From NCBI GenBank assembly GCA_900617105.1, contig UYFQ01000010.1:1-64000 (forward strand): DNA of 64,000 nt, written 5' to 3'. The notes beneath the pieces were generated by a model. That model saw only the letters and a list, made by a program, of their open reading frames with translations, made no database searches and was not told the DNA's origin. The position numbers and the translations under genes are program-made. This document shows positions 4,192 through 55,681 of the stretch, piece by piece. The stretch is from Hydrurus foetidus. Its lineage: Eukaryota. How positions within the stretch are numbered: the stretch's first letter is position 1; the number at the start of each line of letters is the position of its first letter.

Positions 4192-4225
4192 AAAAGGGCC
4201 CCTCTTCGGGGCCCTTTTTTATTTT
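4192..4225. terminator. Terminator-like hairpin directly before the integrase RBS
   Basis: AAAAGGGCCCC-TCTTC-GGGGCCCTTTT. Confidence 0.6.
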
Positions 4226-4236
4226 GGAGTCCATCA

Positions 4237-31601: not shown

Positions 31602-31675
31602 AAGGACTCCAAAGGTTTGGGCAATGCGCCCGGGGTTTTGGGAATCCACGCTATGCGTGGGTTCCCGGTGTCTTG

Positions 31676-32146
31676 TCAACTACAGATGTAGTAATCCTGC
31701 CCGTCGAACTCAATCTCGACGTAGTCGACCTTCAGGTTGTCGGCCGTTGCCGCCCAGTCGATGACCAGGTAGTCTGGGAGGGGACTGGGGATGGCCCCAA
31801 TGTCTTCGCACAGTTCGCGGCAGTAGTCCTCGAAGTGGCTCTCGCGGATCAGGGTGGCGCCATGTGCCCAGTCGCCATAGTCTTCAGCCTCGGCCTGGAG
31901 TGCAAGTAGGTGCTTGAGTTCCTCAGCGTTGTCCTCGTTCCAGTCGGCCAATGCGTCGTGGGCATCAGTGACCTCGGTAGCGGCAGAGGCAGCGGCAGCG
32001 GCGTTGTCGGGGTCGACATCCAGGCTATCCGCAGTGACCTGCTCCAGGGTGTCCTCCAGGTCCTGCAGCTCGCCCTGCAGCTCGTCAATGCGCTTGATGA
32101 CATCGCGGCTGTCAATGGTGTCATCCATGTTGGAAATTTCAGACAT
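31676..32146 (-). CDS. Highly acidic ArdA-like anti-restriction (DNA mimic) candidate
   Basis: Extreme D/E content; DYCRELCEDIGAIP..L.DY..IDWAATADNLKVDY resembles the ArdA C-terminus. Confidence 0.55.
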   Translation of the reverse strand: MSEISNMDDTIDSRDVIKRIDELQGELQDLEDTLEQVTADSLDVDPDNAAAAASAATEVTDAHDALADWNEDNAEELKHLLALQAEAEDYGDWAHGATLIRESHFEDYCRELCEDIGAIPSPLPDYLVIDWAATADNLKVDYVEIEFDGQDYYICS

Positions 32147-33032
32147 TTTTGGTCTCCGAAGGTTGCCTCAATTCGAGGTCTGGGTAAAAGATTCGGGCGT
32201 GGGCTTGGAAGCCCTGCCAGCGCGCCTCAATGAGGCGGTCACGGTAGTGGTAGTCAAGTGCGGTGCCGGAGCCTGGGCTCAGGTATCCGTACATGGCGTC
32301 GTGCCAACGCTCGAACTTCTCGCGGAAGTTCAGCTCGTGGAAGGGCTTGCTATGCTGGGGCATACGGGACAATCGTGTAACCCACATTGACCAGCTCTAG
32401 GGCAACGCTCGATGGCCCGCAGTCGCGCCAGTCAAGGTCAAGTTCGTCAAGTATTCGGCCCGCCTCGTGTACCCGGTCGGCCCTCAGCGCGTCAGCCTCA
32501 TTGCCGTGCTCGCTGTCGTCCTCAGCGATCCACACCTCTCTCACTTCTTTGCGCATAGTGCCTCCACTTCTTCGTGGTTCAGGGGTGTCCAAATCGTCTC
32601 GTGCGGGTAAGACGTGCCGGGGCCGCCCGCGATGGTGTTGAGGTGGGTGTCGTCGATGCCGGGGTAGTCGTCCAGGTCGAGCACTTGGACGCTCACATCG
32701 GGACAATCGGAGCGAACGTCCTGCACGACACCGCCCCTTACGATCACCAGGATGTGTCGGTCAATCAGCATGGGTCACCTCCAGCGCGGGAATCCAAACC
32801 CACGCGCTAACCCACACCCCCTCGTCGCCGCGTGAGACCAGGGCAGGGGAGTCGATGTCTACATCGTCGTTGGCGTAATCGACGATGGCGCGGTTCAACT
32901 CGTCTTCGGTAGCGACGTTGTCGATGTCCAGCACAAATTTCTCAAGCGCCCTGTAGGCCTGCGATACCTGGGTAGCGGTGCCGGTTTTGGTGATCTTCAC
33001 CAGGTACTTGGCAAGCCTCAGCAGATCCGTGC

Positions 33033-34196
33033 TCATGCGTGCACCTCGGCCTTCACATTGGCCACTGCTGGCCCAAGGTACTCGCTGCGCAGAGTTTCCA
33101 TGGCGTAGTCGCTGCCCACAAAGCCCCAGCAGGCGTCGTTGTCCCCAATCTCGACCCACTCGTCATCACTGTCGGCCTGCAGCTCGAAGGTCTGCACCAC
33201 GCAGCCATAAACGTTGCCGTTGATGATGTCGTTGTACTGGGCCAGGAACTGGCGTGCGTAGATCTCGGCCTGGTTGGCGCGGGCCCAGGCAATCTGCTTG
33301 GGAGTGGCGGCAGGTCGTTGTGAGCACAGCAGGTTGGCCTTGTTATGCAGGTCGCTGCAATCGGCGGACAGCTCAAGGGAGACCAGCTCAGCATGCACAG
33401 GGCCGGCCTCGCTCCACTTGATCTCAACGAGCTGGTATTTGCTGTTTGTGCCATGCAGCACCTGCGAAGGGGTGCGCACAAACGCCCATGGGTTAACGCT
33501 CTGCAGCAGTTCACGCAGCGTGTCATCTGGCACCCAGACGCCGGCGCCACTGGACGTGTCCCAGCGGCAGTCCATGCCCCCGCCTGCAATGCTCCACATG
33601 GAACCACCGTGCTCGTACACGTCGCAGAGCACTGCGTCAACGTCACCGGGGAAATACTCCGGCTCAGCGAACATCTGCTCAAGCACGGTCTGCATCTCCG
33701 ACTCGTAGATCACATTGCTCCAGCTGTGCGTTGAGTTGGCTTCGTCTTTCAGCTGCATCGGAGCCAGCTCGGAAGCCGGGCGCTCCGAGTCTCCCTCGCA
33801 CTCAGAGCCGCTGGCCTGAAAGCGCGCCACGATGTCTTCCCCGGAGTGGACGGACAGCACCTTCGCAATGTACCGGGGCAGCACCGCAACGAAGTGCTTA
33901 TCGAAGATGTCCACCAGCTTGGCCTCACCATAGCGATCCATGCCGAGTGCTTCAAGCGCCTCAGCTTCCTTGCCTGCGTAACGGCTGCGGCGGTCGAACA
34001 GCTGCCCCATTCCATCGCCCAGCATGTCTTCGATGTCGCGGTTGTCGTCATCGTGCACCAGGTACGCCACCACCAGCTTGTCGCCGACCCGCTCATGCAG
34101 GACGTAGTCGTCATAGGCTGGTTGAAAGTCCACTTGCACCTCGCCGTGGGGTGTGGAGACGAAGTGCGTGTGTCGCGTCGAAAGTTTGTAGGTCAT
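33033..34196 (-). CDS. Hypothetical phage protein (387 aa)
   Basis: Start after hairpin-RBS motif; YEHGG and CWGFVG motifs. Confidence 0.7.
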   Translation of the reverse strand: MTYKLSTRHTHFVSTPHGEVQVDFQPAYDDYVLHERVGDKLVVAYLVHDDDNRDIEDMLGDGMGQLFDRRSRYAGKEAEALEALGMDRYGEAKLVDIFDKHFVAVLPRYIAKVLSVHSGEDIVARFQASGSECEGDSERPASELAPMQLKDEANSTHSWSNVIYESEMQTVLEQMFAEPEYFPGDVDAVLCDVYEHGGSMWSIAGGGMDCRWDTSSGAGVWVPDDTLRELLQSVNPWAFVRTPSQVLHGTNSKYQLVEIKWSEAGPVHAELVSLELSADCSDLHNKANLLCSQRPAATPKQIAWARANQAEIYARQFLAQYNDIINGNVYGCVVQTFELQADSDDEWVEIGDNDACWGFVGSDYAMETLRSEYLGPAVANVKAEVHA

Positions 34197-34231
34197 AGGG
34201 ACTCCAAAATTGTGGGCAATGCGCCCGGGGT

Positions 34232-34543
34232 TCACGCAGAGTGGCGTGGAGAAAAGCAGTTCAGCAGCTCGCCGGTGTGGCGGTCCAGGTGCTCACGAAT
34301 ACCGTCGATGTCGTGGTACAGGTCGTCATCGGAAGCAGCAAGTAGCGCGGCAAGGTTTAGTGGGTTGCCGTTTGCGTGGCATGCAGTGATGTCCAGCTCA
34401 ACTTCGAGCATCACGCAGCCACGGTTCAGGGTGTCGGTCCATGCGTAGCGCTTGAGGTAGCGGTCGACGATTTTGTCGATCAGGCGGGCGTCGGAGGTCT
34501 CGACGATCAGGGTGATGCGTCGGCGTCGGGTAGTTGTGGTCAT
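34232..34543 (-). CDS. Conserved phage protein (DUF6874-like)
   Basis: DITACHANGNPL...HDIDGIREHLDRHTGELLNCFSPR pattern, recalled. Confidence 0.6.
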   Translation of the reverse strand: MTTTTRRRRITLIVETSDARLIDKIVDRYLKRYAWTDTLNRGCVMLEVELDITACHANGNPLNLAALLAASDDDLYHDIDGIREHLDRHTGELLNCFSPRHSA

Positions 34544-37500
34544 GCAAACTCCAGAATGAAACCGCACTCAGTCATGTTGCAGGCGAAGAAGCCCCCGCCC
34601 TCGACCTTGAAGCAGTGGTAGACGTAGTCCCCATCGCGGTTGACACGCAGGGGCTCACCACCCAGGAACGCGCCCTTGGCCCTACGCTGGGGTGGAACCA
34701 CGCCCAGCTGGTCGTAGAACATGGCCCCAGTAGTCGGTGTCCACTCGTCCGGGTCTGCATCCAGCGCGGCCCACAGGGCGTCCCATTCCAGCGGGGCGCT
34801 CATGCTGGCACCGCCTCGGAGCGGTACGCGCAGATTAAATTCCAGAAGGCGCAGCACAGCTGCGCGGAGTGGGTGCTGTCGGCCTTCAGCAGGGCCTCGC
34901 CCAGGGCTCGTGCGAAGCCCCCGCCCCGGGCCTCCATGGCGGTGATAGCCTCCATGTACTCATTGTGGGAGAGGGAAGTAATGGCACGCTTGTGCACCGT
35001 CACCGCAGGTGTGCCGATGACGACGGCATCGCCGTGCAGGCGCAGGCCATTTAGGTTGTAGCTGACCACCACGTCAGGTGGGGTCAGCTCGTCGTCGAAC
35101 TCGACGAGCATGGAAATGTGGGCTGTTTTTCGCATATGAACTCCAAAGGTTGCCCCAATGCAGGGCGGGTTAAGTTACTCGGCAAGCAGCCAGTCGGCAG
35201 GCACGCCGTAGGCCTCGTAGTCGCCGGGGTTTCCAAGGTCTCCAGCGCCAGGTACGCAGGGGCTGCAGCGAGCGCACTTGACAATCACAGGTGACTCGAA
35301 GACGAAGAAGTGCAGGGCACCGCCAAGCCAGCTGGACTCGTACTTGACCCCGTACAGCTCCCCGGCGTACTGGCACTCGTCCTGGTGCACGTAGTTGAGC
35401 TCGAAGTCGCACTCAGCCCGGGCCTCGTCGAACTCGTCGTCGGTGCCTCCGCTGTCGAAGTCAGCTCGCGCCTGCTCCATGTGCTCCTTGCTCGCGGACT
35501 CGTAAGTCAGGTTTGTTCCGTGGCGGTAGAGCATGTCGTCCACCAAGTCGGGGTCCAGCTGTTGGGCGTGGATGTAGCCGTAGGCGATGCCGGTGTCGGG
35601 GTTGTGGTTAGGTAGCATGTGCATCGAGCTGCTCCTCAGGTTGTGGTGAGACTTGGGCGCCGCCGGGCAACAGCGCCAGCACCACGGCCGCTTCAGGTTT
35701 TTCAAACTGGGCCTGTACTTGGTTGATGCCGTCAACGTGTGTCTCACCCTCGACCGGGGCGAACTGCCAGCGGGTGAGTTGGCCCTCGTAGCGGGCGAAG
35801 ATTGGAATTTCAGGGCTCATAGATCAGCTCCAGGGTTTGCGCAGCAAGGCTCCAGGCCCTGGTAATCAGCGCAGATACAAAAGGGTCTTGGATGTCGATG
35901 TCTTCATCCTCAGTGTCTGTGAAGACCTTGCTGAGGGCCTGCAGCATCACCTCGTTGGCGTCGGTGTAGTCGTGCAGGTGCGAGATGCCTTTCTCAGCTG
36001 TCGCCTGCTTGAGAACGCTCAGCTCCAGCTCGGCCGACTCAAGGGTGTGGGCCAGGCCTGCGAGGAAGCGCCCAGTCAACTCCACGGCCGCGTGGTGGTG
36101 CATGTGGGCACGGGCTTTGACGTATTCGAGCCTCATGTCGTGGCTCCTTGGGCCGCCAGCTCACGCAGGTGATCACGCAGCCAGCGCCGCGCGGAGTCGT
36201 AGCTGGGGTGGGCGTGGAACTTGCCCACGGTCTCGATGTCGAAGCTGGTCAGGTCCTGGACACGCACGCTGAAGGCCTGCTGTCCCGAGGGGTTGGTCTC
36301 GCGGGTCACGAAGAAGTTGCCAAACTCCGTGAGGACGCCAGTGCCCGGCAGCACGGTGCCGAAGAAGGCCATGGTGGTGTGATCAAACCAGTGACGGTGT
36401 TCGCCTGGGTTGTACAGGCGCCGGATCTCCGCCATGGAAATCGAGGGGTAGTTGAGCATAGTGGGACTCCAAAATTGCGCCAATGCGGCGCGGGTTAAAA
36501 AGTTGTGTGGGACGGGCTGAGGCGCTTACGCACCAGCAGTGAACAGGTCGTGCTGACGACCCCTGGTCGGCACGTGGGTGACAGGGCGGTCGAACGCAAG
36601 GCCACAGGACGCGACGAAGCGCGCATCGTCGAATGCGACGTTGAGTCGGAGGTGGGGCAGAAGGTTGTTGACGACCCGAGATACCGCTGCACGGTTGTCA
36701 GGTGTGTTGGCCTCTTTGAGGGCCGTGGCCAGAGCCACATAATCCTTCTTGGACATGCTCATGTTGAACTCCAAAATCTGCGCCAATACAGCGCGGTTAA
36801 AAGTGGGGGCGCACCCGGGTCAGGGGTGCGCCTCCGGTTTCTCACTTGCAAAGGTTACCGGGTGAGATCCGGCTTCAGGCCTAGTCGAGCGTCAAACTTT
36901 CGTCGGCGGGTCTCGATTTCGGGTCAGGGGTGGGGTAGGACCTGTGCACCGTCCACCTCCCGACTTTCGTATGCCCCGCCTATGAAGTCTTTGCAGCCCA
37001 GGCTGGTAGTGGCGCCCAATGCGTCCAAAACCCCGGCTTGCCCGTCAGCGACCCATACTGGGCCACGTTTGCGTTTTCGTTGATCAGCTGTATCTTTACG
37101 CCCACCGGCGTGGCCTCGTCGATGGGCAGCCAGGTCTGCGCCGGAGAGAAGCACGCAGTGCCTTTCGAGTTGAGGGTTGGCTGAATTGGCTGAGGCACAT
37201 TGGCAGGCTCCAGGTTGTTGAGCGCCTCCACAAGGTCGTCGGCCAGCCACTCGTTGTGGGCGTCGACCAACCAGGTGGCAGGACCTTCACCGCCCTCTCG
37301 CCAGTACACCGCCCAATTGTTGGCATCTTTGGGAAGGCACTCTTCAATGTTGCCGTCGCCTGTGTCTCGGACCGGCCAGGTTTGGTAGATGCGGGTCATT
37401 GCGTAATCCTCGATTCGGACTTGAACACGGCATTGATGAAGATGCCCTCGCCATTGGCCTCGTCGTGGGCCAGCTTGTCGTCGGAGGCTTGCTCGATCTC

Positions 37501-37982
37501 CTGCATCTCGGCGCGGAACGCGGCCGCGGCCTCGTCGTAGGTCATGCGTGATTTGCTGGTCCACCAGCCGTCTTCATCCCAGCCGCGGTAGCGGCCGGTG
37601 ATGGCGTAGTACATGTGGGCTTCAGGCATGCGGCACTCCCTGTGACAGGAAGGTGGCGAACACCTTGGCGAGCTCGTCAGGGAATGCCCCAGGCTGCCCC
37701 ACGTGGTGGCCGGGGTTGCGGGCGATCCAGGCGCCCATCTCCTCAGTCACTTCGTAGAGAAACACGCTGGGGTAGCCCTCGTCGGGGTCGTAGTGGGCGG
37801 CGTCGAACTGGGCCATGATGACGGCGAATGCCGCGCAGTTCTCGGCGAGATTCAGGTGCCCTTGGAAATTGTCGAGCAGGCCGTCGTTCTGGCGGCACTC
37901 AGCTTCAGCTCCAATCATCAGGTACATGGCCTGCATGGTGACATCGTGGGCTGGCGGTGGCGTTGTCGGGTTGAGGTCCATC

Positions 37983-38351
37983 TCAATACTCCGTTGTAAG
38001 GATCATGGCGAAGCGCTCGCCCTCGTTGGCGATGTAGAACAGCCAGGTGCCATCAGGCGCATCGGTCAGGTCGATGTGGCGCTCCCACGCTGGGGGCACA
38101 TCGTCCTGGATCTCCAGCTTGAGGTCCCCTCGGCCGCCCAGCACCTTGAAGGTGAGGATGCCAAGGTCCCCCTGGGGGATCACCTGGGGCAGCTCGGTGG
38201 CGGCGATGTCGATCAGCCAATACAGGCCGGCCTCGGCGCAATCCCGCACGCCGTCGCTGTATTGAAAGCTGCGAGCGAGGGAGTGCCTGACGAAGAGGTT
38301 GGCACCGTTGCGGCCTTCGTTATAGGCCTTGAGAAATGCTGCTGTATCCAT
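37983..38351 (-). CDS. Conserved phage protein (DUF6876-like)
   Basis: YSDGV...YWLID...TDAP...ILTTEY pattern, recalled. Confidence 0.6.
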   Translation of the reverse strand: MDTAAFLKAYNEGRNGANLFVRHSLARSFQYSDGVRDCAEAGLYWLIDIAATELPQVIPQGDLGILTFKVLGGRGDLKLEIQDDVPPAWERHIDLTDAPDGTWLFYIANEGERFAMILTTEY

Positions 38352-41133
38352 GTGTGAACTCCAAAAGTTGCCCCAGTGCGGGGCGGGTTAAAAACTATCA
38401 AACCACCTTCATGCTGTGTTGCGTGAGGACTTGCTTGTCCAGGTAGGCGGCCCAGTCCCACTGGCCGTCGATGAATTGGTCCAGCTCCTGAAGGACGCGG
38501 ATGACGTGGTTGCTACCGATGTTTCCACCGCGCAGGTCGTCCACATACTTCACCTTTGCCCCAGGGTGCGAGGCGCAGATCATCAAGTTCACCGAACCCA
38601 TAGCAGCTTCGACGTAGACGTGATGGCGACGCAGGTTCAACTGCGACACTTCGGCACGCAGGACCTTCAGGTACTTCTCGGAGGCCTTGCGGCGCGCCAA
38701 TTCGATCTGGTCCTCAAGCCAGTCAGAAATCGTGACGATGGCTGGACTGCTCTCGGTGAGGTTGTGCGAGCGAGACTGGCTATGGCTCATCTCGCTGTAG
38801 TGGTGCGTGGTCACTGGACCTCGGCCGTCTTCATGACGTTGTCGGGGTGCCGCGCCGGTGAAGTTTTCAGAGGTGTATTTCACTCGGCATCTCCCTTCAA
38901 GCGTCGAACGATTTCCTCGTGGGTGAGGCCTTTGAGGAGGTCTTCGATCTCTGCCTGCTCCACCCGGTTGCGCTCCTCCGCCTCGGCGTCTTTGCGCTCC
39001 TTCTCCTTGCGCCACAGCTTCAGGGCCTCCATACCCTTATCTGTTTTGCCAGCGTCTACTGAGATGTAGAGGGTCACCTCGCGGCCCTGTCGATCAACGA
39101 ACACCGGTGTGCCACTGGTCTTCACAGTCACTGTGAAGTGGTTGTTCACGAGTCGGTTGGCAGTCTCCATATCGAGCGAGCCGCCGAATGATCCACCGAC
39201 GATCTTCTTGGAGTTGTCGGCGTAAAGCCGGGTGTGGTACCCGATGTCTTTGTGGGCGCTGAAGTGACTCACGGTTGGTATCCTTTCAGCCACGTCGGGC
39301 CAAGTTCGTTGCGGATCTGGCGGAGCAGGGCGCCGTCAGTCTCTTTCTCGTCACGTCCCGAGATCCAGGCCACGCGCAGGAGGTTCTTCCAGTAGCGCCC
39401 GTGGCGGGCGGCGAAGGCCTCGATGGCGCGCTTCTGGTCGGCAGTCAACATGGCCGCTGCGCGCTGAGCCAGTGGCACCTTGTTGGTGTTGGTCAGACCG
39501 TGCTCGGCAAAGTATGTAAAGTTGCCGTTGGTCATGTCGTCGGGCAGGCACCGCATCAGCAGGTAACCCGTGTCGTTCTTCTTCGAGAAGAAGTGGGCAC
39601 CGCCCTCGTCGTAGGCCCAGGTGAAGCCGTTGGCCGTGTGATTTTGGTAAGGGGACTTCACAGCGCGCGCCCCAGAGCCTCAAGGTCGAACCACTGCCCG
39701 TTGTCGGTCAGCACCGTGTAGCCGTAGTCGCCGCCGTAGCAGTAGCGGCGCTCGTGGGTACTCCACCAGAAGGTGTCAACGCGCTCGATGCCGCCAGCAA
39801 GTTTCGTAATCATGTTGTTGGCCAGCTGGGCAAGCTCGGCACCGTGGGCCTCGTCTACTGGCTTCTCCAGCTCGATCCAGACGCGGTACAGCTTTTCGGT
39901 TTTCTTCTTGGGCATATGAGTCCTCACTTGACTGCGACGAATCCGCCGCTGGTTTGCTAAAGCGCCACGCATGGCGCATCGACGTAGCTACCCTTGGGGC
40001 TCACCAGTCGACCGTAGGAGACGAAAGTGCCTCCGTAAGGGGCGACGGCCATCACGCTCAAAACGCGCTGCAGGTAGCCGTCATAGGAGACGTGGGTGCG
40101 CACGTCAGGTCCCTCTGTTTGGGAGACGCTTGATGCGCTCCAGCCAGAAGTAGTTTTCTGGGTTGCTCAGGTCCCGCAGGCACAGGTAGGTCACGCCGTG
40201 CATGCTCCACACTACGAATTGATCCATCATTTACAGCTCCTCGCGGCAGGTGCCACAGTGGGTGAAGTGGGTTGCGGCTTCGTCGATGTCGTGAACGGGG
40301 TGAATGCGGTTGCCTTCGCGGTCAGTGGCCCGCTCTGGAATTCCGTGGGCATCGTCTTCGCCCATCCATTTGATTCCCCCGAATCTTCTGGAGGTGCACG
40401 GGACGCAGTGCACATCCGCCTCGTAGGTGTAGGCGATGACTCTCACACCGGCACCAGCACTTCAGCGACCCAGGGGCGGGCCTGCAGCTCGACAGTTTCG
40501 ATGCGGCACTCACGGCGCGCGGCGAGGGCGCTGGCCAGACGCTCTGCCTCCGGCTTCCACGGCTCGCCCACTTCGCTCACGTGGTTGAACATGAAGGTCA
40601 TGTCCTGCGTGGCCTGGTAGGCGTAGTGCAGGGCGTTATGGCCTTCGATCACCCGGGTATAGACCCTGACTTCATATTTGCGCATGGAACATCTCCTTGG
40701 CCTTGTCGAGGGCCGCTATCATGGGTTCAGGGTCGTTGTTGCCGGAGTAGGCCACCCACGGGCTCAGGATCTCACCTGGAGCCCTGTTGTCGCATGGGTA
40801 GCCTCCACGAGATATGGCCAGAGGGCATTCCCGACACGCTTCGCTGGAGTCCCAGGGCTTGTTGTCGTAGTGCAGCTTGCACAGCGCACAGCTGCTCGCA
40901 GATACCTCGATGGGTAGAACCCGGTACTGCACGATTTGATCCTGGATCGTAGGATCGACGCGATGCTCAATGCGGTTGGCTTTACGCAAGCCAATCCACT
41001 TTCGCAGGGAATGCGCAATCGCATCCTGAGGGGCCACGCGCCGAGCGGGCGTCGGGTAGAACTCCGCTAACCAGGTTTCTTGTGACATTAGGTAGGACTC
41101 CAAAATTTGACCCAATACAGGTCGGGGTTTGCC

Positions 41134-41565
41134 TCAATTCAAGGCGGGTTTCTCAAGTAGCCAGAGCCTTCGAGCGTTGTCTTCGGCCTTGGTCTTGAAT
41201 TTGTATCCGGTGTCGCGGCGTATGCACTGCAGCATGTTGAGGTCGCCGGTCTTCACTAGCGCAGAACCACCAACAGCCATGCCACCCAGCAGCTCAAGGA
41301 GTTCCTTGCGACGCGGGGAGTGCGCTACGCCTGCGCCTATGTCCAGCGCGGCCTTGAAGGCGCTCAGGTGGTACTTGTAGGGTCGCTGTCGGAACACCGG
41401 TTGAATCCGGTGCACAGTGATCAGGCTGCGCACCTGGCCCTGCTTTATGCCCAGCGCGTCGGTGACCTCGTCGAAAGTCAGGCAGGGCTCTCGCCCGGCC
41501 AGCGGTCGGCGCTCGAAGTCCCACTTCTTCGTGAAGACGTGGCCATGATTTACGATTCCAGTCAT
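41134..41565 (-). CDS. Putative HTH DNA-binding protein
   Basis: LTFDEVTDALGIKQGQVRSL; ATGA-coupled start. Confidence 0.55.
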   Translation of the reverse strand: MTGIVNHGHVFTKKWDFERRPLAGREPCLTFDEVTDALGIKQGQVRSLITVHRIQPVFRQRPYKYHLSAFKAALDIGAGVAHSPRRKELLELLGGMAVGGSALVKTGDLNMLQCIRRDTGYKFKTKAEDNARRLWLLEKPALN

Positions 41566-41999
41566 TCCAAGTAGCTCCCCACGACCGCGCCATCGTCCTC
41601 GAAGCGGTAGACGAATCCACTCCACATCGACTCGGACAGGAGTCGGTGCCAGCGGGACAGCACGCTACCGGCCTTGGTGCACACGGCCCAGCCCATGGGC
41701 AGGGAAGTCTGGTTGCCCACCTGGATGACCTGTGTATCAAGGGTGTCGTGGGTCTGGCCCTTGTACTTCACGAAGCGCGGGGTGCAGTCGTCCTTCGCGT
41801 AGTCGAAGTCCTTCTGGTCCCGAGCACTCAGCTCGGGGTAGCAGAGTATGGGGCGGACACGGTTGTTGGTGACGACTTTCACTGCGGACACTCCCGCAGC
41901 GCGCCGCCACTGACGTTGTCAGGGTGCATGTTGAACTCCAAAATTTGCGGCAATACACCGCTACAAAATCTATAGCTGCATCAGCAGCGTTGTCGGGGG

Positions 42000-43920: not shown

Positions 43921-44600
43921 GACTCAAGACTCCTTGTGGCCACGTCGATGGCCTCGTCAAAGCCTCCACGATCCACGCAGTAGTGCGTAGGGACCCTGTC
44001 CCCCACCTTCACAATGGCGGTGCGTGTGGCGTCGTCCTGGTAGAGCTTCACCGTCTGATCGGAGGCGTCTTGCCAGTGGCCGGCCAGGGCGTACAGAGTC
44101 TGCAGACGCTCGGCATCTCGGGCCTGCTTCTCGACCAACTTCCAAAGGTCACCACGGGTTCTGTTGAGTGCCCTGAGGGTGCTCTCGGTGGGGTTCAGCT
44201 CCCACTTGGTGTGGGCCTTGCCAACCGCCGCCGTTAGCTCGTCAAACTCCAGGCGGACCTTGAGCATGTAGGGGGTGTGGGTCATCGTTTAAATCTCCGT
44301 CCGTTACGTTCGTTTTTCCACTGGGCCTTGCGCTTGCCGGCCACGTCGTAGGTCGTCACAGGCTCTGGCCAGGGGTCCCTCGTGAAGTCCATACTGCCCA
44401 GGTCGTCAGCGTCACCGGGTGACACAGCGAATGCCGACGCTGCCTGCATCGCAGCGAGCATGGCGAGGAGGCCCCTGACCCGGCCGAGACCGAGGCCATT
44501 ACCAGCGATCACCGCTGTGAGTGGTGTCGCTGACGTTGTCAGGGTTTGCTCCATGCGCAGCACCTCAGGCTCTACCCGCATGGGCTCGCTCAGAAAGTCG

Positions 44601-44969
44601 TCATTGGAGTTCATTGGGCACCTCCACTTCGTCACCCAACTCCGAGGCGACGTAGCAGCGCAGCCCGGCCACGAGTTCGGAGCGATCACACTGCATCCAC
44701 TTCTTGCCCTCGTCTCCCTCCGCGTAGCCGTCGGTCCAGTACGCAATCCATAGACCAGAGTGGGCAATGGTGCGGCTGATATGCTCACGCGTTAGGATCG
44801 GCCCGCCTTGTGCCCAGTCGGTTGAGGTGGTTTCGATCAGGAAGTCGTCTTCGCCGTCACTGGTATCGAGCCATACGTGTGTGGCTGACATATCCGCGCC
44901 AGGGTGCTGCGCCCGGCAAACCGCCCAATTCAGGGCGGCTCCAGTCAGTTTTGATGTTTTGATACGCAT
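44601..44969 (-). CDS. NinX/DUF2591-like protein
   Basis: LTGAALNWAV...STDWAQGGPI...AGLRCYVASELGDEVEVP. Confidence 0.7.
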   Translation of the reverse strand: MRIKTSKLTGAALNWAVCRAQHPGADMSATHVWLDTSDGEDDFLIETTSTDWAQGGPILTREHISRTIAHSGLWIAYWTDGYAEGDEGKKWMQCDRSELVAGLRCYVASELGDEVEVPNELQ

Positions 44970-47900
44970 GGTGTTCCGTCTCCGGTTAAGAATCCAAGGT
45001 GGACCAGCCGCAGCAGGTCGTTAGGCACTGCGTCACGGGTCCTGGTGTTTTTCAGGCTGTTGCACATGCCGTGTATGTCAGTGCCCCAGTCGTAGTCCTC
45101 AGTGACCTGCAGGACCAGGCCGGGGTCGGGTCTGGAGAAGTGGTCCACCCTAGCCAGGCGGAAGCTGATGGACTTGATCACGGTTGCACCGCCAGTCCGC
45201 GCCAGGTGGCTTGCTGCGTCGGGTCGTTCAGCACATCACTGGGGGAACCCGCTTCCTCAGCCTGACTCGGGTGCATGCGAGCTTTGAACCACTGAAGCCC
45301 GCCCCACTTTGCGTAGTACAAATTCCCATCAACTTCAACCTCGTAGACGCCGACCTTGTCGGGCTCCACCGACATGGGAAACCAATCGGTGACTTGGGGC
45401 ACGAGGAAGAAGTACAGCAGGTCGCAATACCACGGCAGGTGGTCAAGTTTTGTGGACTCCGTGAAGTGGTCACCTTCTCCGTCATAGCCCCAGAACCTCC
45501 CGTTGGTGACGTTGTAGGCAACGCTCCGTTCCGTCCAGGGCAGCCCGTAAACGTAGACGAGGTCGCCGCCCTTGTCGTGGGACACTGTGTCCACCACGAG
45601 GTTACGGGTTTCGGCGAGGGCTTGCACCTCTTCCAGCGTGCGGTGACGCGTAAATTTAGGTAGGGTCATGCGGATCTCTAAATTGGGTTGTGGTGGTGGT
45701 CCAGAAACTCCATCGGTGTGGAGAAAATGGCCTCGGTGTCAGCTGGCAAGCGGTGCTCAGGTGGCTGCCACTTGACGACGTGGGTGCGGTAGATGGCGAG
45801 GCCGGTGCATCGACTCCCTGAGTGCACGTGGCACTCAACTACCGCATCGGAATGGCACAGGCGCTTGTATTCCTCGGGGGTGCTGCCGCCAAGCCACCCC
45901 GGCAGCGCATCACGCCGCAGAGGGCAGTCAGAGCAGGCCCTGGTGAGCTGTTTCGTGGCGGGTGCACCCTCACCCTTGGCAATGAACTTGAGTCGCTTCA
46001 TGATTTACTCCAGGGCGTAGGCGGTGGCGAAGGCGACTTGGCTGTCGTAGCGCTCCACGCTTCTGCATGCCCCGCCAGCCATGTGGCGCACCAAAACCCC
46101 GCGATGGGTTTCAAGCACGTTGACGGAGTGGCCCTCAACTTCTGCAGGCGCCTCAACATTAATGCGGCCCCGGACATGGTTCATCGAGCGCATGGAGCTT
46201 TGGACAGCTTCTGCCTGAGCTTGGGTAAGGATCATGGCTTCACCCCAGGTGTAACTTTGGGCCAGTGAGAGCCCTTGAATTCCACAGTCATCGAACCCGT
46301 GACCATGGCTGTAATCATCCCCATGCCAAAGGTCAGCCCGCCGATGAGGGCGATGCCAATCAGGCACAGGATGACGGTGTTGGAGATCACGCAGAGGATC
46401 TCTTCGAGGCGGGTCATGCGCTCCTCCCTTGGGCTTCAATAGTGGCGGCTACGCTGCGCTGCAGGTGGTAGAGCAGATCCTCGGCAACGCTCCCAATCAG
46501 CGCCTTGGACTGCTGTCTGGTGACGGTCTGCTGGACCGATTGAGTGCCTATGCCGGGCACATCCACCTCAAGGGTGACCCTCAGCTCCCCCTCCACTGGG
46601 GTGGAGTTGCGCTCCTTGGCCAGGTTGAACTCGATGCGCAACTTCTCCATCGCATTCCAGCTGGCAATGGGCCAGTCCTCGGTGTCGTGTCGATCCAGGG
46701 TTAGGGCCTCAAGGAAGCCCTCGACTGCTTTCTGTAGGCGGCTCATGTCGGGGCCTTCTGTGCAGCAGGTCTTGGCGAGCGTGCCGGCTGCGTTCGCCAT
46801 GCTTGAAGGCACGTGTAAGTACCTCCGCACAGCGGGCACAGGTGACCCCTTGGGAGGTCTGGGCACGGTTTGCGTTTACCGTTCACAGCCCACCTCCAAA
46901 CAGCTCGGCGTAGACCGCAGCAATGCCACGCTGGACTTCCAGTCGGGAAGCCTCAGCCTGACGATGCTTGTACTCGCGCTGGGCCCACTTCATCTGGGCG
47001 TAGGCAACCAGGTTGGCCAGCTCCTCAGGCTTGTACTCGGAGATCAACTCCTCGTTCATAACGCCCCGTCCGCCATGGAAGGAGTCTTCCATACCGTAGG
47101 TGGTGAACTTGACCTTGTCGGGTCCCAGCAGGTGGGCATCAACGTCGTAGTAGCACCACGACTTCTTGCTGCCGTTACCGTCGTCCCACCACGTGCCGTA
47201 GGTCTCGTCCAGCATTGCTCGGTTGGCCTGCACATAGCCCCGGAATAAGGCCTTCGCTGCGTAGTTGTCCAGCTCGTGTGGGTAGATGTTGGGTTTGCTC
47301 ACGATTGCAACTCCTGTAGGGCACCAATGTTGTGCAATGCCTGGATGATGTGGGTCTGAGCCCAGCAGCATCCCTGCATTTCAGCCACCACTGGGTTGTT
47401 GAAATAGTTCACGCCATCGCGCTGCATCAGCTCGACAATGTCGTTGCCACCTGTGGAGGTGTAGAGGTGCCCGTACTCGGCGACGATCTGGTGTTGATCT
47501 GGAGTCAGCTTCACGATTGCACCTCCTGTAGTGCGTTCACCGCGTCGGTGCCGGTCATCAGCTCTTGGATCTTGCAGGCCATTTCCCAGCAGCTGACAGC
47601 GCGAGAGTTGGGGCTGTTGTAGATCTTGGTGCTGGGGTCTGAAGCCTTCCGGCCATACACCCAGTTCAGGAGTTGGATCGCAAGGTCTTCGGTCTGGTCA
47701 ACGATCTCCTGCTCGGTGCGGTGGGGCTGAGCCTCTGCACCCATCTCCCGGACCACGTGTGCGCCCCAGTTCGATGTGCCGACAAGGTGTCCCGCTGCTC
47801 GCGCCGAACTCGCGGCGGTGAGCAGCCGACCAACATCGGTCCAGTCCGGTGAGGCCGCTTGCTCTGCCAGCAACTCCGCACGAACCTTGTCCAGCAGCTC

Positions 47901-49558
47901 GGTGCCTGGCACCGGCGCCGCGGCGAGGAACCGCGTGGCTTCGTCGTAGTGGAGGTGGTTGTCCACCAGTACCCGAAGGTGCGTCAGGGCCTGCATGCGC
48001 TGGTGGTCGAACTGGAGGGCAAGGGTGCGCCACTCCTTTGCCACGTCCTTGGGCTCGGCCGCGATCCACGCCGCAGCCGACAGGGCCATGCCGTCCTGCT
48101 TGACACAAATCGGGCCCAGCGCCTTCCCAATGTTGACCCACAGCGCCAGCACCTCGTCCAGGTACAGGCTGTGTTCTGCGCGGGCGCCCAGCTTGGTCTT
48201 GTAGACCGTGTAGCCCGGAGTGCCGCCGGCGTCCTCAACCTTGGTGCAGGTGAAGTCCTGCAGGCGGTCTTGTAGGTAGGGCGTGCTCATATCCCGGTGC
48301 TCCCAAACCCAGACAGGTACTCGTGACCCTCCCGGCCGTAGCGAAAGCCACGGTTCCGGTAGGTGCCATCGGCGCGGCGCCCACACTCGTAGAACACCCC
48401 GAAGTCACCGTTGATGGTGACGACGGCGAGCGAGCGCAGAACTGGCGCAGAGTTACCGAGCAGCTGGGCGGGAAGCACCCAGCGCTCGAAGATTTCGTTG
48501 ACGGGAATAATGACGCTGTCGGGATGCAGGCTGAGTTGGACCTCAGTCAGCAGTTTCCGAACAGCGTCGAGATGCCGTTTTGCGGCATGGTTGTGGTTGT
48601 CGAACGCCAAACGCGCGTCCGCCTCCTGAGCTTTTACAGCTGTATTCATTTGGACTCCAAGGGTTTGCCCCAATACAGGGCAGGTGCTGACTTTACAACT
48701 ACTTACGAATTAACCTGTGACAGGTTGGTGAATTTGCGGAAATATCCCATTCACACTATTGACACGCGTCGTGGCTACAGTCTCTGTAGCAGTTTCAGGG
48801 TGCCCTTCGCGTCTTGCCGGTACTGACTGACCGGTTGGTCAAGAATCGTGGGGAACCTGCAACGGTGCAGCGTTACCGCCTCCGGCGAGTCCTCATTCCC
48901 CACCAGCTCGAAGCTCTCGAACGGGGGCAAATTGGGAACATGGCGCAGGTGAGTCTCCCGCAGCCAGGCACAGTCAAGCGGGTCATCCAGCAGCGTTACG
49001 CGGCCAGACATACTTCCCCCGGCGTCCACACCACAAAGTCAGCCAACACCTCGGCGCGCAGCCCGGGGTACATCGTGGCCAGCGCCATGTCAAACTGCTC
49101 GTTGATCTCAGGATTGATCCTCAGCAGCGTGGGCGCCACGCGGTGCAGGCACCCCTCGTCGACACGGCAAGGGATCTCGGCATCACCCTCAGGGCCATGG
49201 GACTCCACACGCACATGAATATCACCATGTGGAATGTGGCGGTACAGGTGGACGGTCTGGGTTGGGAAGCGCCCGCAGGCGCCCAGCAGTTGGAACTGCG
49301 ACAGGTGAATCATCTTGAACTCCGAAGGCGCTATCAATTCAATAGCTAGTTGCGCATTGTTCATGCGGGCTAGAGGCTGACTGCCTCAGGTAAGCCCCCG
49401 ACAGGGGCTTACACAAAGTTCGTCTTGGGGTTGGTTCAGCGCTTCACGGTGGATCTCCGGTTGGTTGATGGGCGCAAGCCTGTGTCAGGTTGCGGTCTCA
49501 AGGTCGGTTTACATATCGTCCTCCATTCATCAGGTTTGGTACACAAAAGATCAGGCGT

Positions 49559-49584
49559 AAAAAAGCCACCTCAGCAGGTGGCCA
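49559..49584 (-). terminator. Intrinsic terminator inside the early arm
   Basis: Minus strand GCCACCT-GCTG-AGGTGGC-TTTTT. Confidence 0.7.
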
Positions 49585-52019
49585 TACTGGGTAGGCGTGG
49601 GTGTCAGGTCAAGCCGGGGCGTACCCCTTGATCAGATCTTCGATCACGGTCTCGGGGCTCATCGAGTACACCTCAAGGTAGGCCACCCGGCCCGTTTTAG
49701 GATGGGCCTGCGCCAGCTTTGCTAGGTGGTACTCACCTGTCGCCAGGTTGCCTAAATCCGCAACGATCCGAGCCCCTGCCCTGACGTGCAGGCGCTGGCC
49801 GTCCAGCGGGCCACCGATGAAGAGGGTGCCGACGTTGTCGGGTGCGATTGGCATCTTGTTTGCTCCTGGACGCGCTGGCTCCCAGCGCAAGTCCCCATTG
49901 CACGAACCGTCGGTCATTTTGTAAAGCCTGAAAAATCAGCTCCACCACTGTCAAGGAATTTATCCATTGCCTCAACACCCGTTGCTGCGGGCGCCACGCG
50001 CAATAGCAATTGCCTTGCTGCCAATGCCTCTTGTGTATCCCGCAACTGTGGCGCGTCACGCTCGATACGTGCCAGCAAGTCTTTGCAAACCTGCACCAGT
50101 TCTGGTGCAGCAACAATCAGCGATGCATCGGCAAACAGGGCGTCATTGACCGTCACCATTTCGCAGATATGCGTTTCAAGCCCGACCGGTGACGTATCAG
50201 AGGTTATGCGCTTTGGGAAAGCATTAGACTCCTCGATTTTCCAAGGGCCGGGGGTGTAAGTGTTTGTCATCTCATTTGCTCCTAAATTAATAGCTGACTA
50301 GTCACGGCCCATAAGGGCTAGAGGTCAAGTCTTCGCAGCGCCTCGGCTTTCAGCCCGGGGTGCTGGATGCCGTTGGCGTACTGCTCGGCTTCCTCCCGCG
50401 CCCTGGAGGCATTACCGTTCAGGGCGATGGCCTTGTCGAAGAACACCTGGTCTTGGCCGGACGGCTCTAGCCGTTCAATCAGGTACTCGCCAGCTGAATC
50501 CGCCACCATGACAAGGTCATCGGGCTCCAGCGTGTACGTGGGCTCGTCGTCAGATTCCCCGCACTGCTCAACTTTGCCGTTGAGCTTCACCCACACTCCG
50601 TGATGGGCGTCGACAAAGTCGACGCCCTCGGGCACGTCCTTGAGCTTGACGACGCCGTCGTCGGCACCGTACATGGAAAGGTCGATCGGCATTTCATTTG
50701 CTCCTAAATTAATAGCTGCCTGCTCAATGTTGGCGAGGGGCTAGATGCTGATCTGCCCCTACACCTACACCCACAGGCCTTCTGGCGTCTGCTTCAACTC
50801 CGCGTCGTTCAGCGCGGAGTTGATCCGCAGTCGCAGCGTCGTGGCGTACTGGGTCTCAAGTCGGTGATTCACCACCACCCGAACAGCGTCAACGCGCTCG
50901 GCCTCGACTTTGACGGTCCAGCTGTTGGGTGCGTCACCTGCCCCCACGAAAACGCTCAGGTCCAGTGGGGCAAGGGCGTTCAGCACTTGATTTCGATCGG
51001 CCATGGGGTTCCTCTCTGTTTTCGTGACTATACCGGGGCCACGCCCACGGGGTCAGTGTCCCGCATAAAGCGGCCCACGACGGGCATGCCAAATACCTTG
51101 GCATACCCGTCGTCGTCGTGCTTCACGTGAGGGACGCCCTCGGAGTCAAGGAATACTTCCCCCACCAGCACGTCAGCGAATGTGATCTTGCCCTCGCTCA
51201 GGCGCTCGGCCAGATCCTGGGCGGGCAGCATGATGTTGGCCTCGAAGTGGTTGAAGGCGACGCTGTCGGTGATGCAGTCGCACCCGTTGTTGCCATTGCC
51301 CCAGATGAAGTACACCCACAGCCGAGACTTGGGGCGGTAGTTGGGGTTGAGGCCGCCTGGCGAATTGGCGGGGGCGTTGTCGGGGACGGTGAAGTACAGG
51401 TGGCCCTCGTCCAGGGCGTTCAGCTCGTCGTAGGCCCACTCGGTGACACGCTGGAGGTTGGAGATGGGGTCCTTACGGGCGAAGGCAGGGCCAAGGCCGA
51501 TGCCCAGTGGGTTGGCGCCGACGTTGTCGGGGACCGTCTGGTGCTCTTCCCCGTCATAGATGCTGTGCATGGTGTACCCGTGCTGGGCGGCGAGCTTGAT
51601 GACGTGGGCAAGGATGCGCTTTTCGTTTGAATTCATGGTGGACTCCGAGGGTTGCCCTAATTTGGGGCGGGGTTAACTGTTCCAGTGGGTGACTTTGGCG
51701 GAGGTGTCGAGGACGGACTCCTTCTGCTCCATGCGGGCCTTCACGAGCCACTGGCATTCATCGCTGGGCAGGTTGGTGGCGGACGCCAGTCGTGAACGTT
51801 TCGGCCCACACACCCGTCGATGGGGGGATGTAGTGCATCCCCCCATCGCGGAGAGTGAGGCGGGTAAAGGGCCTTGTGCTACAAAATTCGTAGCAAGTTG
51901 GGCTAGATTAGTCCGAAAACAGGGTGCTTTCGGCCCCGGCGGCGGGCCAAGTTGGGTGTTTCAACCCTAAACCTGCCCCGAATCGTCGCCAAGGTCGGGT
52001 TTGGTGACGTTGTCGGGGG

Positions 52020-52262
52020 TGCACTACAAGCACTGTGCAAAATAGGCAAGTCTTTGATTTATAAGGCTTTTGTGTTGAGAATTTCGTGTAGAGCAGTTGG
52101 CGGGGAGAATCCCCAATCTAATAGAAAATGCGTTTCATATTGTGAAACGTACTTTTAGAAAAAAAGACCATTTCTGGAATGAACTGCTCTACACCTACCT
52201 GTTTTTATACTTACCTATATAAATCAAGGATCTTGTATGCTTTGCACAGTGCTTGTAGTGCA
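52020..52262. repeat. 22-bp perfect inverted repeats flanking an AT-rich core
   Basis: TGCACTACAAGCACTGTGCAAA at 52020-52041, reverse complement at 52241-52262. Confidence 0.9.
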
Positions 52263-52321
52263 GTGATTTTGGCCCCTTGGAAAGAATCGTGCCAGCTTTT
52301 CTTCCGATTCGGTATTTTTAG

Positions 52322-52338
52322 CTGGCACGGACCTTGCT
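52322..52338 (+). promoter_or_regulatory. Sigma54 -24/-12 consensus
   Basis: CTGGCACGGACCTTGCT = TGGCAC-N5-TTGC. Confidence 0.55.
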
Positions 52339-54537
52339 TTATCCAAGGGTTTACCCTGTGCGAGGGTTTACCCTAGGTAAGCCCAGGCCGTGCCTTAGGA
52401 GTGGGTGTAGCCATCTTTTTCGATGCCAAGCCCCATTCCGGCGAAGTTTATGAGCACGCAGTCGGGTCCGGGCGCCACTTGGCGGCGGAATTCCCTGTAT
52501 GGAACCCCACCTAAGTACCCGTTGCAGGGTGTCAAACGCTCCCAGACCCGCTTGAGCGAGTGGCGCTGAGGCTTGGTCAGGAAGATCATGTGAACACCAA
52601 TGCCGTAAACCTTGCAGCCCGGTATTCACGGGAGTTCTGTCGGGGTTTCTGCTTGGGTTCGACCCAGAAACTACGCACCAGAGTGTTGGTTTGCCCGGTC
52701 ACCTCGAACACCTTGCCCGAGCATTTGCTTGCCCGGTTCATGGCGGTCTCGATTTTTTGGGTCAGCCGGCCGTACCTGGTGAAGACGGGGTCGGGGGCGC
52801 CGACGTTGTCGGGCCTCATGACGTAATAGAGGGACATTTTGAGTTGGACTCCAAGTTGTGCGCCAATTCAGCGCGGGTTGATTATGCGGTCGCCTTGATG
52901 ACGGTCCGGGCGTACTGGGCAAAGGTCATAGGGCGAAAGCCCTGAAGACGTGCCGATGCGACGTGAATTTCATATGTGGTCATGGTTTGGACTCCAAAAG
53001 TGCTTAAAAATTAAGCAGAAACAGGGTTAAAAATCAAATTGGGGCTGCCCCCGACAACGGCAACGTTAGCGCTAACGTAAACGCTATCCCGACAACGTCA
53101 TCGTCAAGGCCAGCGAACCAGCCCCAAAACGATCTCAGGCAAGCCCCGACAACGTCGAGGAATTAGCCGTGCAGGTTGGCCTGGACAACGTCGGTGATGT
53201 CCATAAAGCCTGAGTTGTGGCCACACATCACAACCCACTTGCCTCCGAGGTGCCGGGCGTGGCTGTAAAGCCGCGCAATGTCAGGCGTGGAGAAGGTGTA
53301 GACGGCTGAGCCGTCTTCCCAGATGTAGTACATGGCCAGAACTCCTATTGGTTTGAAAATCAGATTGCAGCAACCCCGACAACGTCATCGTCGGGGTTGG
53401 CGATGAATTTCACGATGTGAAACCAATCCCGTAATACCTGGCCATCGCCTGGGCAGTGGACAGGATGGATTCCTTGTCGTTGTCGTGGGCGCTGATGGGC
53501 GGCACGTCGCTGTCGTTGTCGGGGCCAACGGCGCAGTATTCGCCCCAGTCGGTATCCCGATACACCTTGACCAGCCCCACACGGGCAATGAGACGTTTTG
53601 GCATTTGAATTCCTTGATTGAGAATCGTTTATATTCCGATTGAAATAAAAAGCCCTATTAAGGCTCTTTAGTTCAACACCCCGACAACGCCGGTGTTGAT
53701 GGCGTTGTCGGGGGTCTAGGTTTGAAACCTTGGCGCAATACACGCCAACAGGCCGGCCACGCCGGGATTGCACAGAACACGCCCTGTGCGATGGCGGATT
53801 GGTAGCCTTATCATCGGCTGGAGGTTGATCAACTTATGGGTGCTAGTAGTAGCCCGAGCTTGGTATTGCAATCAGGGCGTGCACCATGTGCTGCATATCC
53901 CCACGAATGGGTTCAGCGAGCCCCGTCAAGGGCTATCACGGTGACTATGAGTCACACACCTGCCCATTGTCATTACCGGGGGTCAGGGTTCCATGCGTCC
54001 AGCATGGGTCCAGGGCTTGCACCTGCTATACGCTTGATATGGGTTCGGGGCTAGAGGTTCTTGTCACTGCGTGGGCCATTGGGCTGGTCAGGGATTGGTG
54101 AGATTGACCACTGGGACGGCTCGGCGCTCATGCGCTGTCGCTGTCGGGGTTCTGATTCCTGAGGAACTGCTTGGCTTTGTTGGTTGCTGATGACTATCCC
54201 CTACGGACTAGCGTAGGGGACTGCACATCTCTAGGGTCGCCATATCATTGATACGGGCGCCCCGACAAGGTGCGGCACGGGGCCGGTGGCAACGGGCTTA
54301 GCCCGTGGCTTTGCCCTTGTCGGGGCTACATACGGTAAATTTTTAATGACCGAAGCTGACCAAGTTCAAAGCACACGCGGCTTCACCGGCACGGTCGAAG
54401 GGGTAAACCTTGTCCGATTGGGTAAAACGTGCGCACTGATCCAGTGTTGCCAAAATGGCAACTTGTCAGGCTGTGAGTGTAAGACTCACATCTAAGGGAA
54501 AACCCTTAGATGTAAACCCTAGGGTTTACGTTTTGGG

Positions 54538-55431: not shown

Positions 55432-55681
55432 TGTAGAAGCCTTAAAAAGTGACACGTGCAGGGATGGCGTGCACGCGGAGGAGGGGGATAGGAGAATTAA
55501 CCATGTAATTAATGTAACCGATTAAGGCGACACTGTCCGCGCATTAAAGCAACAAATAAAAAATAAGTAAGTTGACGGCTACCCTTTTCTATGCTAGAGA
55601 GCTCCGGCCCGGGCCCCTGGGGCCTTAAATAAAAATCAAAAATACTACAACTTTGCCTTATTAGTATGTAATAATGTAGCC

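Follow-up and report, generated by a model that had tools for sequence, protein, structure and literature searches.

Aca2 blocks ribosome binding through a hairpin in the 5' untranslated region (UTR), as described in PMC13551039. The start-associated sequences (SAS and ESAS) of Cluster K mycobacteriophages are linked to initiation, their function being given as unknown in the passages of PMC3203893 devoted to them. The PeSLs of T4-type phages, in the sections of PMC2839356 and PMC4122927 that describe them, combine a sigma70 -35/-10 promoter with a stem-loop acting as a terminator, and recombination between PeSLs has been demonstrated. Then there is boxB, whose loops end in A and take a GNRA-like fold (in phi21, a CUAACC hexaloop), stand with boxA in nut sites and bind the Arg-rich protein N, according to the relevant text of PMC2724277 and PMC12550061. 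The element considered here has something of each. It is a short hairpin joined to a ribosome-binding site (RBS) and repeated along the early genes of a prophage, in a stretch of 64,000 nucleotides (nt) deposited under Hydrurus foetidus (contig UYFQ01000010.1, positions 1 to 64,000; hereafter the window). The element is real and uncatalogued. I propose, as a reading to which I would give somewhat less than an even chance, that it is a distributed translational operator, shared by the early gene blocks and acting in mRNA.

An initial annotation of the window had listed fourteen copies of the hairpin. Every one is present at its position, with the stem and loop described, and the closing pair is indeed T.G in eight of them. 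On the minus strand of 30000-54500 there are 14 YGHAYTG hairpins with three or more additional Watson-Crick pairs. YYGGAG comes after 12 of these. The plus strand of the same region has none. In 200 dinucleotide shuffles the mean number of such hairpins is 0.4 (at most 3), and of those with YYGGAG 0.005 (at most 1). Two further RBS-fused copies had been missed, with stems at 49330-49346 (GCTAT-TGAATTG-ATAGC) and 53001-53017 (TGCTTAA-TTT-TTAAGCA). The AACCC said to precede the hairpins is common though not universal: it is missing ahead of 41961 and 53748, and only part of it precedes 48682 and 32178.

The hairpin-RBS module is found in nine relatives as well (G001, G006-G010, G017, G019 and G026; G- and L-numbers are labels of the phage or prophage and sequence records compared), at 10-16 copies within one early operon of about 24 kb. 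Its anatomy was drawn from 81 core copies among 103 candidates, 22 having been dropped because no T follows GGAG or because the gap or stem length falls outside the limits. The order of parts is a G-free flank, a GC stem of about 5 bp, a loop ending in U before G, a G-free linker of about 7 nt, GGAGT, a short spacer and ATG. The stem has 5 bp in 49 of the 81 copies (arms run from 4 to 7 bp) and G-C as its outer pair in 70; most loops are 4-7 nt long, and the most frequent linker length is 7 nt. Among all 103 candidates the gap from stem to GGAG is 5-8 nt in 86. The two flanks contain 5% and 2% G against a background of 29%, a comparison limited by the selection of linkers holding no more than one G. 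The AACCC of the upstream flank appears as C in 54, 60 and 66 of the 81 copies at positions -3, -2 and -1. As to the stop codon of the upstream gene, said often to lie in or beside AACCC, a crude open reading frame (ORF) rule puts its end no more than 15 nt before the stem in 31 of the 88 cases that could be measured across phages.

The stems vary while their pairing is kept, as the initial annotation had it. In the window alone, 18 cells of the alignment are changed on both sides of the stem, against 6.2 +/- 1.8 by shuffling (0 of 500 shuffles). Across phages, in 68 rows chosen by loop and RBS pattern with stem pairing ignored, 110 cells are changed on both sides, against 45.4 +/- 4.3 (again 0 of 500), and the covariation score is 0.588 as compared with 0.10-0.19 for slid partners. 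Each inner free pair of the three is of Watson-Crick type in most of the 68 rows (58, 61 and 60), and all four pair types occur. It had been argued that the T.G pairs betray the strand on which the element acts. The count of those pairs is right, and the inference drawn from it is weaker than claimed, because both strands fold equally well as RNA (-8.79 versus -8.81 kcal/mol, the sense strand being the more stable in 17 of 81 copies). It is rather the orientation of the copies, their covariation and their fixed tie to the RBS that lead me to read the element as RNA. Nothing is conserved from -45 to -7 (at most 0.24 bit over the 81 copies), hence there is no promoter upstream of the copies. A second structure on the Shine-Dalgarno (SD) sequence, by pairing with AACCC or as a TTGGA/TCCAA mini-hairpin, was looked for without success: there is no consistent partner and no covariation, and the top pair probability is 0.08. 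An antisense RNA complementary to the RBS tag found no support in five genomes, where opposite-strand matches, counted without reading their contexts singly, number 1 to 7, near the control of 1 to 4 per strand.

What is held by sequence lies in the loop and beyond the stem. The junction of loop and 3' arm reads U|G in 67 of 81 copies, a junction found in 142 of 706 other hairpins and in 7 of 24 that resemble terminators, and none of the 81 copies has an extra-stable tetraloop. Five-base loops start with a purine, G or A, facing the final U, and may close as triloops. GACT tetraloops and CTCGTT hexaloops retain this U although pairing is impossible there, which makes it a feature of sequence. 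Loops are more alike within a phage than between phages (identity 0.58 versus 0.45 after removal of duplicate stems, p=0.0005), as is the spacer after the SD (0.67 versus 0.50, p=0.0005), while the free stem positions are barely phage-specific (0.43 versus 0.39).

The association with early genes can be seen by a route blind to structure. When every YHGGAGT start in the early arms of ten phages is counted, 82 of 100 carry a hairpin where shuffling gives 8.8; at late GGAG starts the figure is 7 of 43, against 6.5 by shuffling, which is the level of chance. Matches to R2, a pattern derived from early-arm copies, number 81 in 9 records, all of them in the early arm and on the coding strand. The search of phage genomes proposed earlier has thus found the module to be a clade-wide feature of early arms. 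The nine carriers included in a terminase tree (G026 is not in it) all fall within one starred clade of 13. The same clade holds G002, G013, G014 and G015, which have no match, and since G013 is rated complete and G015 92% complete (G014, 70%), at least one loss of the element within the clade is likely. Twelve arms of non-carriers, put to the same test of starts, are mostly near chance; G023 is mildly raised (10 of 36 starts versus 5.0 expected), and G020, with hairpins at 16 of 41 versus 4.2, has palindromic leaders of its own. Those leaders of G020 (L084, L131), a phage outside the clade, are repeated and carry ACTAGT/ACGT palindromes before TTGGAGA.

Beyond the group the module is scarce. 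Among 151 genomes of the family to which G002 belongs, 148 are without a match, so the element is not a host-wide leader; the array occurs only in prophage G001, and two genomes have one match each, with no early-arm homologues nearby. A blind pattern scan of IMG/VR gave 23 matches, of which ten pair at all three free positions, and eight of those ten lie within this phage group. A scan of IMG/VR with a pattern specific to the window also gave 23, none with a paired stem, and these are for that reason taken as chance. Three of 57 matches in metagenomes are fully paired; two of the three contigs encode early-arm homologues, and none of the three is a close relative. The cultured distant relatives PMBT3 and Seuss have no R2 match, and their leaders are without the module. 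(In Caulobacter phage Seuss, L214, an operator-like palindrome, TTTACCT(G/C)AGGTAAA, is repeated at or just before several gene starts, near 18933, 26116, 32470 and 34903.) A search of the window against Rfam 15 found only tRNAs, and over 30000-56000 a single chance match (E 0.059) that does not lie at a copy; no described family there matches the element at the gathering score. The literature searched contains no description of the motif, supplements lying outside that search, where motif catalogues could hold it.

The position of the element among genes was judged with a simple in-house gene caller (440 genes). At 81 of 94 element junctions the gap to the preceding gene exceeds 20 nt, unlike other junctions, 242 of 330 of which overlap or lie no more than 20 nt apart. 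The element therefore stands at the head of blocks of 1 to 20 genes, and the genes that it heads are not translationally coupled. Folding predicts that the RBS is easily opened there: the cost is 6.7 kcal/mol at the 81 elements versus 9.8 at 197 other starts bearing an SD (p=8e-10), and the predicted cost rises when the hairpin is scrambled (71 of 81 copies) or deleted (65 of 81). The geometry fits a low-penalty standby site, with a median surface area of 20 and a predicted penalty near zero.

The coordination and shut-off of translation in long early operons of small unknown genes are poorly known outside T4 and T7. A distributed operator might work there as follows. At the head of each early block a hairpin is fixed about 7 nt upstream of the GGAG of the SD. 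Unbound, the module is predicted to leave an RBS easily opened and to be small enough for ribosomes to load unhindered, so that the early genes would be translated strongly at first. The U-ending loop would likely be bound by one common factor, probably encoded by the phage, and a protein seated on the hairpin, adjoining the footprint of the 30S subunit, would block or tune initiation at all blocks at once, much as Aca2 does at its leader. The suggestion of a shared binding site that coordinates translation thus survives as the best reading, put conditionally. I favor a reader of the loop over a passive module because the loop is conserved and lineage-specific and the distribution is confined to early genes.

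Two genes come forward as candidate partners. One encodes a protein of 116 amino acids (aa) just before the DNA ligase gene (29859..30209, minus strand), a candidate by co-occurrence only. It is found in 7 of 7 carriers searched and in 0 of 14 others (the short fragments G006 and G007 being left out), and no homologue lies between its neighbors in G015 or after its upstream neighbor in G013. Searches of PHROG and PDB returned no sequence match to the protein, and no viral fold matched at E<=0.001, though a weak or missing fold match excludes nothing. It is the best co-occurring candidate for a reader, to be taken as a lead only. The other and weaker candidate is an early gene of 83 aa with several conserved Arg/Lys (52586..52837, minus strand), which 7 of 9 carriers have and none of 19 others; it was not found in the complete G010 or in G017. 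Its model is confident (pLDDT 92) and has no clear fold match (best Z 4.8); it belongs to no Pfam family, and its Atlas matches all fall under 0.9. A more specific version, in which one phage-encoded protein from a family not yet described (perhaps the 116-aa protein, whose gene lies at the end of the early arm) binds the 10-16 hairpins along the 24-kb operon and switches all blocks together, loop and protein co-evolving in each lineage, strikes me as rather unlikely.

Much can be said against an operator with a reader. The loops vary across the clade in sequence and in length (GHATT, GCTTT, RCCTT, GACT, CTCGTT), which is loose for a protein site, and without the window, G008 and G017 the test of their phage-specificity is no longer significant (p=0.078). 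The silence of R2 outside the early arm is partly by construction, because R2 was built from early-arm copies. A gene family that has the element in one phage lacks it in another, homologue pairs being discordant in 46 cases and concordant in 20. As for the 116-aa protein, it is acidic (6-11 K+R versus 13-20 D+E), and a single clade boundary plus a single loss underlie its co-occurrence with the hairpin. The best match to its fold, chain 5mmm_w of a chloroplast ribosome (Z 6.4, rmsd 2.9, 76 residues aligned), is below the level that the tool regards as informative, and its other matches (PSRP-3/Ycf65-like, Z 4.8; Pur-alpha, Z 4.9) are, like it, within the range of common arrangements.

An alternative view, somewhat unlikely in my estimation, is that nothing reads the hairpin at all. 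It would be a passive leader module that ties up G/C-rich bases and blocks exonucleases, giving the uncoupled early genes an open, S1-friendly landing site for ribosomes and a more stable message. The low predicted cost of opening the RBS, its rise when the hairpin is disturbed and the placement at uncoupled junctions all fit, as does a layout that is that of the standby-site module described in part of PMC3936740: distal single strand, hairpin, proximal single strand, with a penalty near zero. By the same account, though, a short hairpin only equals an unstructured leader, so it brings no gain of its own, and a passive module leaves unexplained the U|G junction, the phage-specific loops and the absence from late genes and host chromosomes. 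Operator and passive module share a hairpin predicted to leave the RBS open, and differ on whether the loop is read. Less probable is that the hairpins mark sites of processing, and that cleavage in or next to them, by RNase E or by a nuclease of the phage, splits the early transcript of about 24 kb into blocks protected by hairpins. The RNase E core, RNWUU, and the cutting of single-stranded RNA by the enzyme are taken up in part of PMC5222698, and a signature consisting of a stem-loop 5' of an A/U-rich stretch, which the layout of the element resembles, in part of PMC4619774. RNWUU does turn up more often than composition shuffles give, in 39 of 81 loops where 5.7 are expected and in 34 of 81 linkers where 12.2 are. 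RNase E cuts single strands, and a 5-nt loop on a GC stem would probably be a poor substrate; moreover 15 of 42 five-nt loops have C or G at position 3, and cleavage of the linker would separate the gene from the very leader that serves it. The requirement of T7-type RNase III sites is for stems longer than these 4-7 bp.

It is very improbable that the hairpins act as attenuators or weak intrinsic terminators that overlap the RBS after them and lower expression step by step along the arm. A GC stem followed by pyrimidines has that look, and several copies in G017 read stem-TTTTTA-GGAG, but within the 8 nt after the stem only 13 of 81 copies have five U and 4 have six or more; 64 have at most four, many begin ACAAC, and a terminator scan of 36100-56000 called no copy on its own strand. 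A shade more doubtful still is the suggestion that the elements are recombination joints like PeSLs, serving mainly to swap genes in a hyperplastic early arm. Early gene order is scrambled between relatives, one pair of copies in the window shares 35 of 39 nt, and the upstream neighbor is kept at 5 of 68 element junctions as compared with 18 of 109 others. That difference is not significant (p=0.11, and the pairs are not independent), the median exact stretch shared between copies is 8-14 nt, reaching 20 nt or more in 6 of 380 pairs within phages, and covarying stems are expected from selection on RNA and not needed for homology. Two DNA runs showed no joint between copies, in contigs, which drop rare forms, and no close relative was found in which breakpoints could be mapped. 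Support for the recombination joint that had been put forward is weak. Least credible of all is antitermination by an N-type protein at boxB-like sites. Stems of 5 bp (GCCCT and GCGCT, for instance) topped by five-base loops do resemble the boxB of lambda nutR, agcccugaaaaagggc, as printed in part of PMC2724277, and the initial annotation called the copies boxB-like. The name is not borne out: the loops end in U and are rich in pyrimidines (purine fraction 0.33), 1 of 81 is of GNRA type and 4 end in A, and boxA-like words (at most one mismatch, within 45 nt upstream) occur at 2 of 81 copies, the background being about 1.8. By a crude test, Arg-rich stretches are absent from early proteins under 200 aa in the window, and the 13 found in other phages are scattered and share no family. 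Nor has a fixed tie to an RBS any role in nut sites. Some further classes were set aside: integron attC sites (the copies are too short and lack an RYYYAAC/GTTRRRY pair), REP elements (GGAG is on the wrong side), sigma54 promoters (GG at -24 is not kept), N4 hairpin promoters, and Cas6f/Racr repeats (the GTATT loop resembles GTATA in this phage only).

The copies in the window lie on the minus strand. The last of the arm (31599..31636; stem 31619-31631, GGAG 31610, ATG 31601) heads a 346-aa gene of phrog_11344 and is the one that shares 35 of 39 nt with the copy at 34194-34232 (feature 34194..34231; stem 34214-34226, GGAG 34205, ATG 34196). Between them is a copy at 32144..32183 (stem 32166-32178, GGAG 32157, ATG 32146). 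The next, at 35133..35171 (stem 35152-35166, GGAG 35144, ATG 35135), has the upstream stop 3 nt before its stem. Two close neighbors come after it, at 36457..36496 (stem 36477-36491, GGAG 36470, ATG 36459) and 36760..36799 (stem 36780-36794, GGAG 36772, ATG 36762), and then the copy that heads a DUF6876 gene (38349..38389; stem 38370-38384, GGAG 38362, ATG 38351). The copy at 41086..41128 (stem 41109-41123, GGAG 41101, ATG 41088) has directly upstream a tandem hairpin with no RBS of its own (41131..41150, stem 41131-41145). AACCC is missing from 41927..41966 (stem 41947-41961, GGAG 41939, ATG 41929). Farther along are 48647..48687 (stem 48666-48682, GGAG 48658, ATG 48649), the first of the added copies at 49311..49351 (stem 49330-49346, GGAG 49323, ATG 49313), and a variant with the 7-nt loop CAAATTA at 51634..51673 (ATG 51636). 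The 83-aa gene is itself headed by a copy (52835..52879; stem 52860-52874, GGAG 52852, ATG 52837), and the second added copy, rich in A/T, heads an ORF of 33 codons (52981..53022; stem 53001-53017, GGAG 52995, ATG 52983). Finally, an orphan hairpin with the same loop and no RBS is found at 53730..53748, near the 3' end of a possible structured non-coding leader.

The window begins with host genes (a clpX-like AAA gene, lon, two tRNA-Gly and a tRNA-Cys), followed by the large prophage. Lon is 76.5% identical to that of Ralstonia, on which ground the host is likely a member of the Burkholderiales. The prophage has a tyrosine integrase at 4237-5379, a replication arm on the minus strand (polymerase, primase, helicase, ligase), terminase, portal and protease genes on the plus strand, and, on the minus strand at about 30.2-55.5 kb, the early arm of small unknown ORFs. 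Its cultured relatives are distant (SHOU24, PMBT3 and Seuss, with terminases about 30% identical). A terminase scan with the single protein found no relative; an alignment of terminases retrieved uncultured ones up to 58% identical. Ahead of the start of the integrase gene (4190-4240, plus strand) a strong terminator-like hairpin has a T-tract that runs into the same RBS word, TTGGAGTC. The first early ORF (54538-55431, minus strand, about 297 aa) contains a long array of AETLA(N/T)A repeats, and Ala-rich proteins occupy the equivalent place in relatives. It is followed by 940 nt of non-coding sequence (53600-54540, minus strand) with many short hairpins, folding far better than shuffles (z = -6.7) and without an Rfam match, possibly a structured leader, a non-coding RNA or a palindromic DNA element. 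Divergent from the early arm is a helix-turn-helix (HTH) gene of the Psq/HTH_28 kind (55682-56158, plus strand), a repressor candidate whose protein, as a single query, was found in 4 of 23 records. Two adjacent genes with leaders at 50262-50330 and 50685-50745 (minus strand) share a different leader, GCTATTAATTTAGGAGCAAATGA, without a hairpin, and the start at 49313 has a hybrid form. Upstream of several copies of the element in G006 (L025, near 2016 and 5506-6027) is a palindrome, TGTCCCCACGTGGGGACA.

There is also a second repeat, CCCCGACAACGTC, conserved in sequence rather than in structure, which is spread throughout the window, dense at 52009-53711 and present too at 30903-41996 and 49834-51530. 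For the word CCGACAAC the count is 27, where 2.84 would be expected; it lies for the most part on the early coding strand, often in frame as Pro-Asp-Asn-Val, and the CCCCGACAACGTC/CCGACAAC repeat forms inverted pairs near the start of the arm. Copies number 10-30 in G008, G010, G013, G015, G017, G019 and G026, and 0 in G009. The repeat looks like a DNA site of the stoperator or parS kind, independent of the hairpin. The word CCCCGACAACG is absent from G009, which bears hairpins, and present in G013 and G015, which do not; the repeated DNA word of these phages varies independently of the hairpin.

A compact signal with a clear consensus, more than 90 natural variants, two candidate partners and a natural loss in sister prophages is directly testable. 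If the element has a reader, RNA-hairpin control of the Aca2 type would be extended from single leaders to a whole arm of a genome, and an orthogonal RNA-protein switch would be at hand. If it is a passive module, it would still offer a naturally occurring set of RBS parts, compact and insulated, for use in GC-rich Burkholderiales. For annotation it marks the true starts of uncoupled ORFans.

How, then, does the element stand among the systems named at the outset? With the SAS and ESAS, as presented in the relevant part of PMC3203893, it shares many oriented copies overlapping the RBS, bases conserved beyond those that pair with 16S RNA (here YHGGAGT and the phage-specific spacer), a consensus particular to each phage and the upstream inverted repeat that some of those copies have. 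The same source gives the ESAS arms as 17-bp repeats conserved in sequence, unlike the present stems of about 5 bp, free in sequence and held by pairing, with the conserved letters in loop and flanks; ESAS follows gene families faithfully, as the present element does not, and neither the 13-bp GGGATAGGAGCCC word of SAS nor the 17-bp repeats are seen here. Like the Aca1 and Aca2 motifs in the account of PMC13551039 referred to above, it is a covarying hairpin of about 20 nt, upstream of phage early RBSs, in lineage-specific variants. Those motifs occur once per leader, directly after the transcription start and beside the DNA operator of the co-encoded Aca, whereas here 10-16 copies share a single operon without promoter or operator signals ahead of them; the analysis turned up no partner of the Aca type. 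In common with PeSLs, in the sections of PMC2839356 and PMC4122927 already drawn upon, it has a repeated stem-loop, SD and start codon after an upstream stop, in a hyperplastic region of ORFans, but lacks a promoter signal (at most 0.24 bit from -45 to -7) and has little exact sharing between copies; promoter-like sites in 36100-56000 number 8, against 5.3 by chance, and one overlaps a copy on its own strand. The likeness to lambda and P22 boxB ends at the 5-bp GC stem and five-base loop (PMC2724277, PMC12550061, in the parts cited earlier): the terminal A of the loop, the GNRA-like fold, boxA and the Arg-rich N are features of which none is seen. The standby-site module runs likewise from distal single strand through short hairpin and proximal single strand to SD, and is treated in the text of PMC3936740 that bears on it as a general physical rule with no requirement of sequence, unlike an element with a conserved loop end that is confined to early genes. 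Aca, SAS/ESAS and PeSL each have a defining feature that is missing here: respectively a transcription start and operator, 17-bp conserved arms, and a promoter. By this comparison the element is laid out like SAS/ESAS and PeSL, and appears to work most like the 5' UTR hairpin of Aca2 or a standby module.

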